DNA from: Octopus sinensis
Taxonomy: Eukaryota
Assembly (NCBI RefSeq): GCF_006345805.1
Contig: NW_021824837.1
Coordinates: forward strand, 1-64,000
Direction of reading: 5' to 3'
Length of the DNA: 64,000 bases
Part shown: positions 4,772 through 63,299 of the stretch, piece after piece
Layout: each line of letters begins with the position of its first letter
How positions within the stretch are numbered: the stretch's first letter is position 1
Notes under the pieces: generated by a model
Told to the model about the DNA's origin: nothing
The model's input: only the letters and a program-made list of their open reading frames with translations
Database searches by the model: none
Translations under genes and position numbers: made by a program

Positions 4772-4890
4772 CAATTTAGGAATGGCCTAAACAGGCCATT
4801 CGTCCACCAGAAAGAGCAGCCAGAACTCAAACCGCCAAGTAGTGCAATTCGGAAATAAGGTGAAAATTTAAAAACGTTTACCCTAATTCA

Positions 4891-4991
4891 TCTTTTATAC
4901 GATGCATCGTTTCGGTGTTTTTAATGATAGACCAGCTTAATTAAATTAAATTAAGCTAGTCTACCATAGGTCACACTTCATCAGTAAAAGA
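4891..4991 (-). ncRNA. Type I hammerhead ribozyme motif (copy 1)
   Basis: Minus strand: TCTTTTA-CTGATGA-long stem II-GAAA-CGATGCATCG-TA-TAAAAGA. Confidence 0.85.
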
Positions 4992-5365
4992 AACCTGGGA
5001 GAGACGAATATACACGAGGCGACTGTATCAATGCCTCGGGAATATCTGTCTTAAAATTTTCAAGACCAACGCATTCGCGCCAAACTTATCGGCAGCAAAT
5101 ATAAACTGCCGATTCAATCTCAGAATTAGTCAGAAAATTATCAATTAATCAATTTAGGGTAGCAAAAAATTCAGTAAAAATTTATCGCTACCAGCGGCCT
5201 AGTGGAAAAGAGAAAATAGTCAAAGACTAAATATATATAAATATAACAATTTAGGAATGGCCTAAACAGGCCATTCGTCCACCAGAAAGAGCAGCCAGAA
5301 CTCAAACCGCCAAGTAGTGCAATTCGGAAATAAGGTGAAAATTTAAAAACGTTTACCCTAATTCA

Positions 5366-5466
5366 TCTTTTATACGATGCATCGTTTCGGTGTTTTTAAT
5401 GATAGACCAGCTTAATTAAATTAAATTAAGCTAGTCTACCATAGGTCACACTTCATCAGTAAAAGA
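5366..5466 (-). ncRNA. Type I hammerhead ribozyme motif (copy 2)
   Basis: Same as copy 1, offset by 475 nt. Confidence 0.85.
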
Positions 5467-5705
5467 AACCTGGGAGAGACGAATATACACGAGGCGACTG
5501 TATCAATGCCTCGGGAATATCTGTCTTAAAATTTTCAAGACCAACGCATTCGCGCCAAACTTATTGACTAATTCTGAGATTGAATCGGCAGTTTATATTT
5601 GCTGCCGATAAGTTTGGCGCGAATGCGTTGGTCTTGAAAATTTTAAGACAGATATTCCCGAGGCATTGATACAGTCGCCTCGTGTATATTCGTCTCTCCC
5701 AGGTT

Positions 5706-5806
5706 TCTTTTACTGATGAAGTGTGACCAATGGTAGACTAGCTTAATTTAATTTAATTAAGCTGGTCTATCATTAAAAACACCGAAACGATGCATCGTAT
5801 AAAAGA
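5706..5806 (+). ncRNA. Type I hammerhead ribozyme motif (copy 3)
   Basis: Stem I TCTTTTA (5706-12)/TAAAAGA (5800-06), core CTGATGA 5713-19, GAAA 5784-87, palindromic stem III CGATGCATCG, GUA cleavage triplet ending 5799. Confidence 0.85.
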
Positions 5807-6050
5807 TGAATTAGGGTAACGTTTTTAAATTTTCACCTTATTTCCGAATTGCACTACTTGGCGTTTGAGTTCTGGCTGCTCTTTCTGGTGGACGAATGGC
5901 CTGTTTTAGGCCATTCCTAAATTGTTATATTTATATATTTAGTCTTTGACTATTTCTCTTTTCCACTAGGCCGCTGGTAGCGATAAATTTTTACTGAATT
6001 TTTTGCTACCCTAAATTGATTAATTGGAGATATATATATATATATATATA

Positions 6051-7158: not shown

Positions 7159-9046
7159 AACTTTTCACGTATGTTTGTATATGGCTGTATATACATACAT
7201 GTTTGTATTTGGAATATTTTATGAATATACGCACTTATTATATGCTAAACTTCTGCAATGTTTAACAATTTTTTAAAGTGATTTTAATAGCTTGTAGCTG
7301 TATGTAATGTATGTTATGTATGTATGTATGTATGTATGTATGCTTGTATACATATATGTAGGTTTACTCTATTTTATTTATTTTTTTAATTTTAGAGTTT
7401 TTTATGACCTACCCAACGTCAATATTTTAAAGAAAATGTCTAAGAATAGTTTGTTGTCACATTGCGCCATCACCCATTCTCCAAATTTTGAGATCTTACG
7501 GATTATAATTGTTTTATATACTATGATTTTCTTTTGTTTATAATTATGGCGTTACGCTTTTCTCCAAGGAATTGGTACATATTCTGTTGCTCTAGTATTT
7601 ATATGTATAAATTCAAAAATATATTGAGTACTGGGTCTGTAGTATCAATCATAGATGCTTTGTCTCGTTAATTTTCATGGCCTCAAAGACAAAACATATT
7701 TCTGGTCTGTGTGGTCCGAAACCACAATATTATGTCGAAGTCTTTTTATAAATTTCTTAACATTTTTATTCTTAGTTCCCAAGAATATTCTTTTGATCGA
7801 CTTGTTTATTATTATTTATTATTTTTTCTTCAAAACTGCTCGGGTTGTATGTCACGCGTTATGGGAAGTTAGTGTTTGGCGAATATTTTCTCACACTTGT
7901 TAATTAAGTGGCTAATATATTCAATATTGATTTTGCATTATCTACATTTTTTTGTTAACTGATACACCTTTTCTGTAGAAGTCTTCTTATTTCTGAATTA
8001 CAGCGGTTACCTTTAAAGTAAAATATACATTTATCAGTTCTCCATATTGAGCTTTTAGCAATGATTAATACATTTATGATCTGTGATTTTCGTTTTAAGT
8101 ACCCATGCACACTTGTTCAGTAAACTTATCCAGTTTTTTTCTTAGTTGTGTTAAGTACGATTTTCCACTTTTCGTAGGAGAGAGGTTTATCGGCTATTAT
8201 TTCCTGTCTCTCCTCAAATTCATCAGTTATCTTAATAATGCTTTTATTTTATCCTCCCATACTTAGGAATCATTTTCATCTCTGCTGGAAATGTTGTTTC
8301 AGTGCTATGATCGGCGGCTTAAAAGATGTTACTATTTATTTAATGAACCCAGCTTGTCTCATTTCTGGAGGTATATAATCTCTCTACATCTCCATTGATC
8401 TTCAAATTTCCAGCCCCCACGATTTTCCCTAACAGCCAAATTTTGTATTTAACACACATTATTACAAATCAATAAAACTTATATCAGGACACTATAGGAT
8501 AACATAAAACTCAAACGAACAGTTACATTAAATATGTCTGATCGACCTGCTAAAAAAAAAATAGAAACCAGTATTAAGAAACAAAATATCAACCAAGTAA
8601 ATTTGAATCAATTTAATTCAATATACAATTATTGATCTTTATTTCAATAATGTTTTACATTTTGCAGAATAAATTCTTTCATAATCATTTACGTCGTATA
8701 TGTGTTGTCACGTAGCCAAGTCAGTCTGTACCAACTAATGATGTAACGTTAGTTGGTAAATTGAAGAAAGGACAGCAGTGAATAACATTTGAATTTCGAA
8801 TCTTCTTTTCAATATAATAACGGATATTTTTCATGAATATATATTGAAATTGAACTGCTTAGAATTTCACTAATCCTTTTAGACTGACCCAACTGGTTTC
8901 CTTGCCATAATTGATATCCCCATATGCATACATACATACATACATACATACATACATACATACATACATACATACATACATACATACATACATACATACA
9001 TACATACATACATACATACATACATACAGCAGGTATAGAGGCAATA

Positions 9047-9277
9047 AGGCGGCGAGCTGGCAGAAACGTTAGCACGCCGGGCGGAAAGCGTAGCCGTATT
9101 TCGTCTGCCGTTACGTTCTGAGTTCAAATTCCGCCGAGGTCGACTTTGCCTTTCATCCTTTCGGGGTCGATAAATTAAGTACCAGTTACGCACTGGGGTC
9201 GATGTAATCGACTTAATACCTATGTATGTCCTTGTTTGTCCCCTCTGTGTTTAGCCCCTTGTGGGTAATAAAGAAAT
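9047..9277 (+). mobile_element. tRNA-derived SINE family A, full length
   Basis: ggcggcgagctggcagaa..gagttcaaattcc (A/B boxes), A-rich tail, 15-bp TSD aggtatagaggcaat (9031-9045/9278-9292). Confidence 0.9.
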
Positions 9278-9595
9278 AGGTATAGAGGCAATTATGCGGA
9301 TAATGCTGCTAAGCATTTTGTCCGATGTGCTAACGATTCTCTAGGCACGCGTCCCTTTTTAGTAACTTGCCAGCTGAATCCTTGAGTTTCCTTCGCTTTA
9401 CTTTTATCTTATTTTCGGATAGTTGCGCAATCAAATTTTGGGACACATAATTCTTTCCGTCGTTATTCTTACACTTTTCATGTTCCTTCATTTAACTTCT
9501 CAAACTCCAACCTCTATCTCATTCTTACTCTCTCTCCCCTCGTCGTTCAACCTTGTCGTTCAACTCGGTCTATAACGACGAGTATTAGTGATTGG

Positions 9596-14560: not shown

Positions 14561-14757
14561 GAAGAAGATATGTAATTTATAAAATAAAATTTAAGAAACC
14601 ATCATATGTAATGGCTCTAGTTCGTTTACAGTGGAGTAAATTAAAAGACTGCATATGATTCGAAATTCCCATGATCACGATTTAGTTTAAATGAATACAC
14701 CACATTAAACACTCACCGGTATTTGAATAACAATGCAAATAAGAATGATGTAAATTC

Positions 14758-15366
14758 TTATTTCTTTATTACCCAGAAAGGGCTAAACATAGAAGGGACA
14801 AACAAGGACAGGCAAAGGGATTAAGGCGATTACATCGATCCCAGTGCGTAAGTGGTACTTAATTTATCGACCCCGAAAGGATGAAAGACAAAGTCGACCT
14901 CGGCGGAATTTGAACTCAGAACGTAGCAGCAGAAAAAAATACCTATTTCTTTACTACCCACAAGGGGCTAAACATAGAAGGGACAAACAAGGACAGACGA
15001 AGGGATTAAGTCGATTACATCGATCCCAGTGTGTAACTGGTACTTAATTTATCGACCCCGAAAGGATGAAAGGCAAAGTCGACCTCGGCGGAATTTGAAC
15101 TCACAACGTAACAGCATACGAAATACCTATTTCCATTTCTTTACTACCCACAAGGGGCTAAACACAGGGGTAACAAACAAGGACAGACAAACGGATTAAG
15201 TCGATTATATCGACTCCAGTGCGTAACTGGTACTTATTTAATCGACCCCGAAAGTATGAAAGGCTAAGTCGACCTCGGCAGAATTTGAACTCAATACGCA
15301 ACGGCAGACGAAATACGGCTACGCATTTCACCCAGCGTGCTAACGGTTCTGCAAGCTCGCCGCCTT
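14758..15366 (-). mobile_element. Head-to-tail trimer of SINE family A
   Basis: Three successive tatttctttac..gtcgacctcggcggaatttgaactc units. Only the last has the full 5' head. Confidence 0.9.
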
Positions 15367-15424
15367 AACGTTTTCTAGGTTTCTGTTACAGTAGTTAGAA
15401 TAATTTGATATTTACTTAGAAGTC

Positions 15425-23590: not shown

Positions 23591-24667
23591 TGCAAGGTTT
23601 TTTTTAATAATTCAAATTAAAACCACCATGTGTATCTCATACAATAAGTATATACATCGTCGAAAGGCATTTCAGCAGTGCATTTACATTTTGTTTGATG
23701 AAGTTGTTGCAGTTGTGCTCACCGACATCTTATTAAGCTTAAATTCAATTTTTCCAAATTCACTCACACGCACACACACACATATATACACGCATATACA
23801 TATACATATACATATACATAAATACATATATATACATATAAATATACATACATACATATATATATATTTATATTTATTTATATTGTTATATTTCGGAATG
23901 GTCATATTGCCAGTTTAGCCAATATCTGTTTCAACACACGACTTCACATAAAAAATCTTGCACAACAAATATTTAAACGTATTTATTTATAAATATTTAT
24001 TTATTTATTTATTTATTTATATTTATATGTATGTATACATACAGAATTTGGGGTGGGTGAAACTGGATTTCGAAACACATGCAAGCTTCAAATATTATTT
24101 TCAAAATGCGTTTTAGCAGCTATTTCTCTTGTCTTGAAGACCCTAATACGATTTAAAATGTCTGTAAGAATGGTTTAATGCATGCGAATACAGGAGTTTA
24201 TATCTTTTGTGGTGAAAGTAGGAGAATGATACTTCTAGGTATCATTCTCCAAATTTCACCACGAATTTTTGTAAGCTCGGTCGAGCTAGTAAATAGATTT
24301 GTAGCTACAGGTAATTTTAAACCAGTCTGAAGGCGCATTACGTCTGCGATCAATGTAGCTACCCTGAAATGTATGCAGAACATATGTCAGCATTAAATTC
24401 AGCATATATTATTGCCTTGCGTACCTCGATCGACAATGATCTCTTGAGGGCTACGCCCAATGCAATTTAATTCAACAACACTACTTGCTGATAGTGTTTA
24501 CATAAATCTCGTTAATTCTGTTACAATTTTGGAGATGTACTTGCATAGCGAGTGACTTGATCTGGGATCGTGTGCTGGAACGAAAACAATTGCAGCGTGG
24601 AAGGTGTTTATAAGCCATTTAAGAAACACATAAAAACTGTTAAATTCACTTCAACATTTAAATTTAA

Positions 24668-24718
24668 TTTGTCAAAATATTTTCGTCGCTTTGAGACCGC
24701 AACCTGTTCACTGACAAA
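24668..24718 (-). ncRNA. Minimal hammerhead variant with G3:C8 core (GTGAACA)
   Basis: TTTGTCA-GTGAACA-G-GTTGC..GCGAC-GAAAATATTT-TGACAAA. Confidence 0.65.
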
Positions 24719-24755
24719 ACTTCGTGCTGCATAAAAAACAGATGCAGTACGAAGT

Positions 24756-24806
24756 TTTGTCAGTGAACAGGTCGCGGTCTCAAAGCGACGAAAATATTTT
24801 GACAAA
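24756..24806 (+). ncRNA. Minimal hammerhead variant with G3:C8 core (GTGAACA)
   Basis: Stem I TTTGTCA/TGACAAA, core GTGAACA 24763-69, stem II GTCGC/GCGAC, GAA, palindromic AATATT stem III. Confidence 0.7.
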
Positions 24807-24935
24807 TTAAATTTAAATGTTGAAGTGAATCGAACGGTTTTTGTAACAATTTGTTATTAAAAAAAAAAAATTTACATGCATTACATGGAATATTATTGCA
24901 CCTTTGCGCGACGCCTATTCAGCTATAGCACGCAA

Positions 24936-30544: not shown

Positions 30545-30930
30545 TGCTTCATTCATTTGACTGTGGCCATGCTGGAGCACCGCCTTCAGTCGAGCAAATC
30601 GACCCCATGACTTATTCTTTGTAAGCCTAGTACTTATTCTATCGGTCTCTTTTGCCGAATCGCTAAGTTACGGGGACGTAAACACAACCAGCATCGGTTG
30701 TCAAGCGATGTTGGGGTGGGGGGACAAAGACAGACACACAGACATATACACACATACATATATAGATACATATATACGACAGGCCTCTTTCAGTTTCCGT
30801 CTACCAAATCCACTCACAAGGCTTTGGTTGGCCCGAGCCTATAGTAGAAGGCACTTGCCCAATGTGCCACGCAGTGGGACTGAACCCAGAACCATGTGGT
30901 TGGTAAGCAAGCTACTTACCACACAGCCAC
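30545..30930 (-). mobile_element. SINE family B
   Basis: Reverse complement of a full copy. Confidence 0.9.
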
Positions 30931-35579: not shown

Positions 35580-36160
35580 TGCAGGCGAGCTGGCAGAAAC
35601 GTTAGCTCGCCGGGTGAAATGCTTTGCAGTATTTCGTCTGCCGTTACGTTCTGAGTTCAAATTCCGCCGAGGTCGACTTTGCCTTTCATCCTTTCGGAGT
35701 CGATTAAATAAGTACCAGTTACGCACTGGGGTCGATATAATCGACTTAATCTGTTTATCTGTCCTTGTTTATCCCCTCTGTGTTTAGCCCCTTGTGAGTA
35801 GTAAAGAAATAGGTATTTCGAATGTCGAAGGCGGCGAGCTGGCAGAAACGTTAGCACGTCGGGTGAAATGCTTTGCGGTATTTCGTCTGCCGTACGTTCT
35901 GAGTTCAAATTCCGCTGAGGTCGATTTTGCCTTTCATCCTTTTGGAGTCGATTAAATAAGTACCAGTTACGCACTGGGGTCGATGTAATCGACTTAATCC
36001 GTTTGTCTGTCCTTGTTCGTCCTCTCTGTGTGTAGCCCCTTGTGGGCAGTAAAGAAATAAGTGTTATAGGTGCAGGCGTGGCTGGGTGGTAAGAAGCTTG
36101 CTTCCCAACCACGTGGTTCCGAGTTCAGTCCCATTGCGTGGCGGCACCTTGGGCAAGTGT
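35580..36160 (+). mobile_element. Two SINE family A copies followed by a family B 5' head
   Basis: Family A at about 35580-35812 and 35830-36060, family B head at 36068-36160. Confidence 0.9.
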
Positions 36161-39735: not shown

Positions 39736-40138
39736 TAGGAGTGGCTGTGTGGTAAGTAACTTGCTAACCAACCACATGGTTCCGGGTTCAGTCCCACTGC
39801 GTGGCATCTTGGGCAAGTGTCTTCTGCTATAGCCCCGGGCCGACCAATGCATTGTGAGTGGATTTGGTAGACGGAAACTGAAAGAAGCCTGTCGTATATA
39901 TGTATATATATGTGTATGTGTGTGTGTGTTTGTGTGTCTGTGTTTGTCCCCCTAGCATTGCTTGACAACCGATGCTGGTGAGTTTACGTCCCCATAACTT
40001 AGCGGTTCGGCAAAAGAGACCGATAGAATAAGTACTGGGCTGACAAAGAATAAGTCCCATGGTCGATTTGCTCGACTAAAGGCGGTGCTCCAGCATGGCC
40101 GCAGTCAGATGACTGAAACAAGTAAAAGAGTAAAGAGT
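39736..40138 (+). mobile_element. SINE family B
   Basis: Full copy. Confidence 0.92.
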
Positions 40139-50145: not shown

Positions 50146-50336
50146 GGCGTAGGAGTGGCTGTGTGGTAGGTATAGGCGTAGGAGTGACTGTGTGGTAAGT
50201 AGCTTGCTTACCAGCCACATGGTTCCGAGTTCAGTCCCACTGCATGGCACCTTGGGCAAGTATCTTCTATTATAGCCTCGGGCCGACCAAAGCCTTGTGA
50301 GTGGATTTGGTAGACGGAAACTGAAAGAAGCCCGTC

Positions 50337-50405
<69 letters not shown>

Positions 50406-54884: not shown

Positions 54885-55464
54885 TATATATATAATAGTT
54901 AAAAAACGTATAGTAAATGCACAAACCAAAAACAGACACAACAGCAAGTTAAAAAATATATAGTAAATGCACAGACGTAGGTGTAGGAATGGCTGTGTTG
55001 TAAGTAGCTTGCTTACCAACCACATGGTTGAGGGTTCAGTCCCACTACGTGACACCTTGGTCAAGTATCTTCTACTGTAGCCTCGGGCCGATCAAAGCCT
55101 TGTGAGTGGATTTGGTAGACCGAAACTGAAAGAAGCCCGTCGTATATATGCACACAAACACACACACACACACCACACACACATATATATATATATATAT
55201 AATAGTTAAAAAACGTATAGTAAATGCACAAACCAAAAACAGACACAACAGCAAGTTAAAAAATATATAGTAAATGCACAGACGTAGGTGTAGGAATGGC
55301 TGTGTTGTAAGTAGCTTGCTTACCAACCACATGGTTGAGGGTTCAGTCCCACTACGTGACACCTTGGTCAAGTATCTTCTACTGTAGCCTCGGGCCGATC
55401 AAAGCCTTGTGAGTGGATTTGGTAGACCGAAACTGAAAGAAGCCCGTCGTATATATGCACACAA

Positions 55465-60420: not shown

Positions 60421-60593
60421 CATAATTTCAGTTTACCTTACTCATTTAAAAAAAAATCTTCTTGCATAGGCATTGCACGACAACAACATTGATTAAGCTT
60501 CGTGCAATGGCTATAAACGATAACGAGGGGGCAGCCACCATATACATATGTATCTACACACATACTCACACACACACATACATATACACATAA

Positions 60594-60822
60594 GGCGGCG
60601 AGCTGGCAGAATCGTTAGCACACCGGGCGAAATGCTTAGCGGTATTGAGTCTGTCGTTGCGTTCTGAGTTCAAATTCCGCCGAGGTCGACTTTGCCTTTC
60701 ATCCTTTCGGGCTCGATAAATTAAGTACCAGTTACGCACTGGGGTCGATGTAATCGACTTAATCCGTTTGTCTGTCCTTGTTTGTCCCCTCTATGTTTAG
60801 CCCCTTGTGGGCAATAAAGAAA
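60594..60822 (+). mobile_element. SINE family A, full length
   Basis: Close match to 9047-9277. Confidence 0.92.
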
Positions 60823-61138
60823 CACGTATATATATACACATACACATCATTATCTCATCTATACATTACTGAATCGAAGTTATAAAATGAATGGTAGATC
60901 TGAGTGTGCGTCGGCCTCGACGGTGAACATTCAGTTGCGCAGCCAAATCCTGAAATTAACGCGTTAGTAGCTGAGCGTTCCACAGTTGCGTGTAACCTTA
61001 ACATAATTCTTAGACACAAATCTTAGCCATTGAATCACATGTGCAGTACAGAGGGGGGGGATAGAAAAGACATAGAAAGACAAAGAGAACAAGAGAGATG
61101 GTGGTGAGGAAGATGGAGAGAGAAAGTGACAAAGAGAA

Positions 61139-61524: not shown

Positions 61525-62003
61525 TTAACTCTTTTACATGTTTCAGTCATTTGACAGCGGCCATGCTGGAGCACCGCCTTCAGTCGAGCAAATCGACCCC
61601 GGGACTTATTCTTTGTAAGCCTAGTACTTATTCTACCGGTCTAGTTTGTCGAACAGCTAAGTTACGAGGACGTAAACACCACATCGGTTGTCAAGCGATG
61701 TTGGGGGACGAATACAGACACACACACACACACTCACCCACACACACACACACCACACACACAACACCACATTATATTATATATATATATATATTATATA
61801 TATATATAATAATATATATATATATATATATACATATATACGACGGGCTTCTTTTAGTTTCCGTCTACCAAATCCACTCACAAGGCTTTGGTCAGCCCGA
61901 GGCTATAGTAGAAGTCACTTGCCCAAAGTGCCACGCAGTGGGACTGAACCCAGAATCATGTAGTTGGTAAGCTAGCTACTTACCACACAGCCACTCTGCG
62001 CCT
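61525..62003 (-). mobile_element. SINE family B
   Basis: Reverse complement of a full copy with an expanded internal microsatellite. Confidence 0.9.
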
Positions 62004-63019: not shown

Positions 63020-63299
63020 ATATATTATATATATATATTATATATATATTATATATATATCTATATAGATGCAGCACGGATTTTTGTCAGTGAACAGGTC
63101 GCGGATTTTAGCGACGAAAATATTTTGACAAATTAAACTTAAATGTTGAAGTGAATCGAACGGCTTTTGTATGTTTCTTAAATGGCTTATAAACACCTTC
63201 CACGCTGCAATTGTATATAAATATATATATGGGCAACACACACACACATACGTACGTACGTACGTACACCTATTGCATACATATTTTTTGTACGCATAC

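Follow-up and report, generated by a model that had tools for sequence, protein, structure and literature searches.

A predicted hammerhead family with an inverted 3:8 core pair (G3:C8) in a Neptune-type Penelope-like retrotransposon of Octopus sinensis

Exchange of the two bases of the tertiary 3:8 pair is the textbook experiment that proves the active hammerhead fold. Compensatory change at this pair is also natural, since U3:A8 cores have been described (Perreault et al. 2011, PMC3088659), and in the available parts of the survey of minimal type I hammerheads of Penelope-like elements (Cervera and de la Pena 2014, PMC4209133) U3-A8 is the only 3:8 variant, found in Schistosoma with about 1300 hits. 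The same survey gives H as the consensus for the base inserted between positions 9 and 10.1, and proposes that Penelope hammerheads act as dimers through a palindromic stem III. In the anole Poseidon element PAc (Frangieh et al. 2024, PMC11167929), according to the accessible sections, cleavage requires the element protein and is partly rescued by the engineered C3G/G8C exchange, uncut RNA is the main substrate of insertion, and the tail is set by two internal sites at which reverse transcription starts. As reported in the accessible text of PMC11167929 and PMC8495972, the double mutant restores activity in part only, and the single-swap intermediate is inactive in vitro. Kalweit and Hammann state, as data not shown in the consulted part of PMC3884650, that the G3-C8 variant is more active with G17 than with C17, and a G inserted into a viroid hammerhead was strongly detrimental (PMC3705267). 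Published search descriptors, as far as these sources could be seen, read cuganga (PMC4209133 supplement, PMC8557442) or CYGANGA (PMC13481778).

The DNA analyzed here, called the window, is the whole stretch of 64,000 nucleotides (64 kb) of contig NW_021824837.1. It carries three hammerhead motifs with a GUGAACA core, in which positions 3 and 8 read G and C. Their parts are as follows.

24756..24806, plus strand: hammerhead motif, predicted cut 24799/24800
24756-24762 with 24800-24806, plus strand: stem I of this motif, 7 bp
24763-24769, plus strand: core GUGAACA, with an inserted G at 24770
24771-24775 with 24785-24789, plus strand: stem II, 5 bp
24790-24792, 24793-24798 and 24799, plus strand: GAA, the palindrome AAUAUU and U17
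24668..24718, minus strand: hammerhead motif, G3 at 24711, C8 at 24706, stem II with one G-U pair
63083..63132, plus strand: hammerhead motif, core 63090-63096, inserted G 63097, U17 63125
63125 and 63126, plus strand: predicted cut of the 63083-63132 motif, between these two positions

The original prediction had named these three motifs, and all were located where it placed them. Its layout of stems, GUGAACA and GAA held; the palindrome, given there as the six bases AATATT, is really 10 bases long, running from A13 to U1.1, and the one extra G between A9 and G10.1 had been overlooked. The copies were said to differ only in loop II or by a G-U pair. They do differ in loop II, but also on the 5' side of stem I and beyond the 3' end of the motif. 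In all three, a 7-bp stem I and a 5-bp stem II flank the core in type I order, and minimum-energy folds reproduce both stems (z of -1.2, -2.0 and -3.0). A hammerhead descriptor relaxed so that positions 3, 7 and 8 were free was run over the whole window as the prediction had proposed, and returned exactly the three known sites, against a mean of 0.1 in 30 dinucleotide-matched resamples of the window. The three copies are non-independent evidence, because a single transposon family gave rise to all of them recently, and the pair at 24.7 kb is so for the further reason that its members are the two arms of one inverted insertion.

A repeat survey of the whole window was dominated by microsatellites. 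An abundant repeat of about 190-240 bp was seen at 14748-15367, 9045-9285, 35584-36065 and 60591-60835, with three head-to-tail copies at 14.7-15.4 kb; the relaxed descriptor found no hammerhead in it. A tRNA-like short interspersed repeat, which we take to resemble octopus SINEs, occupies 54987-55150, 55294-55457, 30719-30930, 39741-39952, 50182-50383 and 61795-61996, and its pair at 55 kb forms a 307-bp tandem duplication. Nested inverted repeats of 226-276 bp with 97% complementarity lie at 4864-5833 and are possibly another inverted Penelope-type insertion.

The motif is hosted by the pseudo-LTR (pLTR) of a Penelope-like retrotransposon of the Neptune type, in its 5' UTR; the element encodes RT and GIY-YIG domains, and the original prediction had not recognized it. 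Copies followed upstream reached the end of a long RT-CxxxCxxC-GIY-YIG ORF, and the motif lies on its sense strand, about 900 bases past the stop codon. In tandem copies (L070 and L261), laid out as pLTR-tail-ORF, the same 210-base segment precedes the next ORF, and this segment is therefore the pseudo-LTR. The element unit measures 4361 bp in L282. The ORF starts (MAYKH..) at about +116 in L282 and L261, in frame with the RT ORF, so the hammerhead core, spanning +24 to +59, falls within the 5' UTR and the ORF begins about 56 bases past the cut site. An open frame of 1029 aa is present in L064. A Pfam scan of this whole frame gave no domain match; the GIY-YIG domain was matched on an L032 fragment (23.3 bits, cut-off 22.6), RT/HTH_animal/GIY-YIG clusters were matched at 0.96, and RVT_1 was matched weakly in the sister-family ORF. 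A C-x3-C-x2-C linker directly precedes the GIY-YIG domain. A PDB sequence search with the element ORF returned no relative. Partial tandems, inverted 5'-truncated copies, an optional tail and (TA)n targets are all present among the copies. The Neptune placement is set by motifs, the ORF tree holding this genome's copies alone. In L032 (3536-8390), a near-complete LINE-like element with ORF1, endonuclease and RT, recognized by inspection, splits the Penelope ORF, and a helicase-like coding stretch adjoins L018 in its upstream flank. The element-derived features of the window are listed below.

24525..24732, minus strand: pseudo-LTR with tail, +3 to tail end, older subfamily (9-nt loop II), left arm of the inverted insertion
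24525..24618, minus strand: first codons of the element ORF (ATG at 24618, about +116), hammerhead upstream
24740..24844, plus strand: inverted partner pLTR, +1 to about +103 (ends early), by alignment to the element
24646..24828, no strand assigned: long fold-back of the two arms, 110 bits against an Rfam microRNA model with a gathering score of 245
63067..63214, plus strand: solo pLTR, young subfamily (8-nt loop II), +1 to +148, without tail, in (TA)n

The interval around the first two motifs is thus one insertion, in which a tail-bearing pLTR on the minus strand is joined head to head with a shorter pLTR on the plus strand. The minus arm (24525-24732) matches the 5' pLTR and tail of the natural full-length copy L282 with 88% identity across 208 nt, and the solo pLTR at 63067-63214 is 97% identical to L282. 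By analogy with the anole element, whose reverse transcription starts inside the ORF (PMC11167929, available text), the ORF begun at 24525-24618 was probably broken off at the tail end, where reverse transcription would have begun. In a read-through transcript of 24646-24828, the motif and its own antisense copy would pair with each other. Two of the window copies form an inverted pair and the third is a solo pLTR, all from an autonomous element, and they do not qualify as non-LTR retrozymes. Elsewhere in the genome, contig C30 carries units of about 400 bp in head-to-tail arrangement (L263, L271, L272, L274), which combine the pLTR with the beginning of the ORF, some with G3:G8 or other core changes; these are retrozyme-like satellites derived from the Penelope-like element.

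We also considered that the sequence might be no hammerhead at all but a hairpin of DNA, a miniature inverted-repeat element or a fold-back resembling a microRNA. The long inverted repeat at 24646-24828 does score against microRNA models, and an Rfam scan of the window gave microRNA-type fold-back matches below their gathering scores and no hammerhead model among the 150 of 216 matches listed. However, Rfam also misses the canonical-core motifs of the sister families described below (none among 106 matches), so the scan is uninformative, and the microRNA match reflects the hairpin only. The inversion point varies between copies, many copies are solo, and the motif lies on the sense strand of a Penelope ORF and is homologous to canonical cores. 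We regard this explanation as largely refuted already and give it hardly any weight.

Next, the core was followed through the 2.72-Gb genome, where the family core pattern had 6264 exact matches and its reversed control none. Among the 4132 copies with intact stem II, 3817 carry G3:C8, 222 carry G3 with another base at 8, and 93 carry another base at 3; none of these 93, and hence none of the 4132, carries C3:G8. In an unselected sample of 90 copies, picked by a downstream anchor, GUGARCA was read in 61 of the 74 aligned over at least part of the core, and U4 G5 A6, A9, G12 A13 A14, A15.1-U16.1, G10.1-C11.1 and H17 were each kept in at least 95% of the copies covering them. The literal CUGANGA box is absent, the family core being GUGAACA. 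An ORF protein tree, built from 29 loci chosen out of 69 scanned (residues 640-1020, this genome only, rooted on the sister family), splits into two subclades, and G3:C8 occurs in both and on the basal branches. Given the genome counts and this distribution, the swap appears ancestral to the family, and on the sequence comparison G3:C8 is its majority and most parsimonious ancestral state. The genome-wide consensus that the original prediction wanted is thus GUGAACA, and it retains both the stems and the 3:8 complementarity whose loss would have spoken against a hammerhead. Metagenome contigs searched with the family pattern gave no match.

G3:G8 copies make up about 2% of the family (44 of the first 100 of the 222 non-C8 copies against 15 with A8, by hand count), G8 being about three times as frequent as the other transversion, A8. 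They occur in old, middle and young subfamilies, some in tandem, promoter-side copies, which argues that mismatched elements spread to some degree. In L199 (G000:C1:37488838 and 37488867) and L082, position 8 is C in one arm or end of an insertion and G in the other, so that either G8 arises repeatedly or two templates are used per event. Two candidate explanations were set aside here. A stepwise path from C3:G8 to G3:C8, in which the intermediate G3:G8 would survive as a basal subfamily, is unsupported, as G8 is scattered over the subfamilies and nested in the tree. Protein-coding constraint on G3 and C8 does not fit an ORF that starts about 56 bases past the cut and a loop II that differs by one base between active subfamilies. 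Changes diagnostic of subfamilies fall on 0 of 42 stem and core positions and on 10 of 71 others (Fisher p 0.013, positions picked by eye).

To place the swap in context, related families of the same genome were compared. Sister family S1, with 52-58% amino-acid identity, has a motif at the same place that reads CUGAUG, with the same inserted G, a like-shaped stem II and GAAA; it has about 3600 pLTR matches and long open ORFs (loci L065-L069, L071 and L234-L253). A further relative, S2, known here from its motif region, has 16 of 19 bases around the core in common and reads CUGAAGA. The pattern for S1 and S2 together gave 3208 matches, with C3:G8 in 88 of the first 100 (hand count). The inserted base is G in the family and both sister families and A in one old subfamily. 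The claim of a natural G3:C8 covariant is borne out by these homologous C3:G8 motifs at the same place in sister Penelope-like families. Hammerhead-like motifs with U3:A8 cores and a short palindromic stem III were also seen (L035:4040 and L068:1027, both minus strand), as were canonical-core hammerhead families (L032:32, L067:7896, L083:2725); C3:G8, U3:A8 and G3:C8 motifs all occur in this one genome.

Relative to the sisters, both sides have changed at the 3:8 pair and at one pair each in stems I, II and III. In an alignment of the three window copies and 13 sister copies, 94% of the cells are paired, compared with 24-48% for slid-partner controls; shuffle statistics on such data overstate the covariation because every change was inherited from a single event. 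Of the 11 conserved core bases, 9 match the canonical sisters; the 2 that differ are exactly the paired positions 3 and 8, still complementary. That only paired core bases changed argues for selection on the active fold. It also bears on the idea that the swap is an accident of relaxed selection, in which C3 became G and G8 became C independently in a drifting motif and their complementarity is a coincidence. By simple post hoc counting, two random core changes would give a complementary 3:8 pair about 1 time in 165; the remaining nine core bases and both stems are intact or compensated, and the G8 copies are nested rather than basal in the ORF tree, at nodes with support of 29-97. In favor of such an accident, the exchange takes two transversions whose intermediate is inactive in vitro (PMC11167929, PMC8495972, as above), G3:G8 elements exist and have spread, and in S1 the normally invariant A9 has given way to C in 71 of the first 100 matches (hand count). 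Since A9C is the S1 majority, core bases can drift in these elements without halting their spread, and together with the spread of G8 it points to loose or intermittent constraint on the Penelope hammerheads of this genome. On balance we consider a coincidental swap improbable.

The ends of the insertions were then inspected. Copy 5' ends peak at +1 to +4 (33 of the 90 unselected copies), and 9 of the 14 copies starting cleanly at +1 have an extra non-templated G before it. An extra non-templated 5' G is the mark of a copied cap. On this understanding +1 is likely the transcription start. A literature search for cap-derived extra G found no paper. The sequence from -20 to +5 (e.g., L282:423-447) overlaps this start and resembles a 3' splice site, with a branch-point-like element and a pyrimidine-rich stretch ending in AG; a short upstream ORF follows the start, and a second acceptor-like stretch lies in the tail at about +145 to +160. 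Penelope pLTRs frequently contain an intron. We rejected a 3' splice site as the origin of the fixed 5' end, as copies retain the AG and often gain a G, which a capped start fits better; splicing may occur in read-through RNA. Copy 3' ends cluster near +147 and +212, inside the start of the ORF.

A footprint of cleavage was sought in the same ends, and only 1 of the 90 unselected copies starts at the predicted cut product, with microhomology at the junction. This suggests the most serious alternative, a hammerhead descendant that no longer cuts, whose fold or 10-base palindrome is kept as a protein-binding or dimerization signal and whose swap records past selection. It would also accommodate the inserted G, U17 and the competing extended palindrome, the spread of G3:G8 copies in several subfamilies, the dominance of A9C in S1, and the finding, in the accessible part of PMC11167929, that hammerhead mutants left insertion in vitro unaffected. 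However, the sister-family control is without a clear footprint too (2 of 77 ends at the cut site and 6 within 3 nt, most with microhomology and mostly from A9C copies), so the missing footprint does not single out G3:C8. The control indicates that insertion uses uncut RNA, which is not proof that the swap killed the ribozyme. Moreover, a complementary tertiary 3:8 pair with the other core bases fixed, across subclades that reach about 20% protein divergence, speaks for a catalytic demand. We judge a non-cutting descendant unlikely, with more in its favor than a coincidental swap.

Several features lower the activity to be expected. A stem III of 2 bp cannot close alone (5.4 kcal/mol penalty). 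For the palindrome dimer, the extended register has -31.2 kcal/mol, the double hammerhead -28.8 and two monomers -28.2; the extended 10-base register, which swallows A13, A14 and U17, is thus 2.4 kcal/mol more stable than the catalytic one. At the inserted position the motif has G, against H in the published consensus. The predicted triplet UUU had been called suboptimal, and U17 is indeed present and lowers the expected rate; but it may partly be a co-adaptation, since C17 could pair with G3 and trap the core, as G17 traps C3. The sisters mostly have C17, in line with such a co-adaptation, but the link between U17 and G3 is not exclusive, because 14 of the 53 S1 copies covering position 17 also have U17.

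Overall, we favor, with a probability of about 0.58, a minimal type I hammerhead with family-wide G3:C8 that is still a slow self-cleaving ribozyme needing a second copy or the element protein. Transcription would start at +1, 23 bases before the core, and probably give a capped RNA. Two motifs would pair through the AAUAUU palindrome to form stem III, and C8, held by G3, would act as the general acid through its 2'-OH. Cleavage after U17 (+59) would strip unit transcripts of their cap or trim the tandem transcripts that read-through produces. Insertion would proceed without cutting, reverse transcription starting downstream (about +147 or +212) on uncut RNA, so that the whole motif would be copied; the thousands of pLTR-only and inverted insertions would arise because a short capped RNA is copied from internal sites. 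A bolder version, which we hold tentatively and at less than even odds, is that G3:C8 is a working third natural solution for the core, reached by two transversions, locked with U17, recurrent in Penelope-like elements, hidden from CUGANGA and CYGANGA searches, and slow so that capped RNA survives. The U17 lock in that version may mirror the rule against G17.

If the slow ribozyme is real, a natural family with a fixed 3:8 swap means that evolution crossed a near-dead intermediate, and that standard search patterns undercount hammerheads. As predicted, CUGANGA-based searches would miss this family, since the cuganga and CYGANGA descriptors, in the source text available, both exclude GUGAACA. 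The genome also offers a series within one transposon lineage (C3:G8, C3:G8 with A9C, G3:C8, G3:G8, and C17 or U17), which bears on whether Penelope hammerheads are needed, tolerated, or tuned down for the insertion of uncut RNA. Should the motif prove dead, it would amount to a modest curiosity in the evolution of repeats.

The literature search found no natural G3:C8, only the engineered mutant; it excluded Lunse et al. 2017 (which may bear on the point), the 2017 Terminon paper, one PMC4209133 supplement and bioRxiv supplements. Natural G3:C8 goes unmentioned in the accessible portions of PMC6765202, PMC6155905, PMC10085705, PMC7229834, PMC11014351, PMC13481778, PMC1636495 and bioRxiv 10.64898/2026.07.22.740005.

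The comparisons that follow draw on those portions of the cited papers that could be consulted. As in the minimal type I Penelope hammerheads of PMC4209133, the octopus motif sits in the pLTR and has type I topology, one base inserted between 9 and 10.1, G10.1-C11.1, and a short palindromic stem III that implies dimer action, and it occurs mostly as dispersed single copies and close opposite-strand pairs. In contrast to them, it has GUGAACA for CUGANGA and an inserted G for H. On sequence, the G3:C8 motif is therefore a predicted variant of the Penelope hammerheads, showing their structural features save the CUGANGA box and the identity of the inserted base. The element resembles the Neptune clade (Craig et al. 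2021, PMC8557442) in its RT, CX2-5CxxC linker and C-terminal GIY-YIG, and in its partial tandems, inverted 5'-truncated copies, tail and (TA)n targets, but differs in a tail of about 65 nt instead of 30-40 and in the non-canonical hammerhead core. Like PAc, it has a hammerhead near the ORF start and a probable reverse transcription start inside the ORF that sets the tail; unlike PAc, it has a Neptune-type and not a Poseidon linker, and its motif lies entirely in the 5' UTR, while in PAc stem II already holds the start of the ORF. The two base changes are those of the engineered C3G/G8C mutants (PMC11167929, PMC8495972, PMC3884650), yet in the octopus family the swap arose naturally and has become fixed in thousands of copies. 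As in the natural U3:A8 cores (PMC3088659), the change at the tertiary 3:8 pair is compensatory. However, U3:A8 is reached by two transitions via a U-G wobble, whereas G3:C8 takes two transversions via a G-G or C-C mismatch and, unlike U3:A8, puts a pyrimidine at the general-acid position. Within these sources, natural U3:A8 is what is known in print (PMC3088659, PMC4209133), and a natural, family-wide G3:C8 is what is new here.
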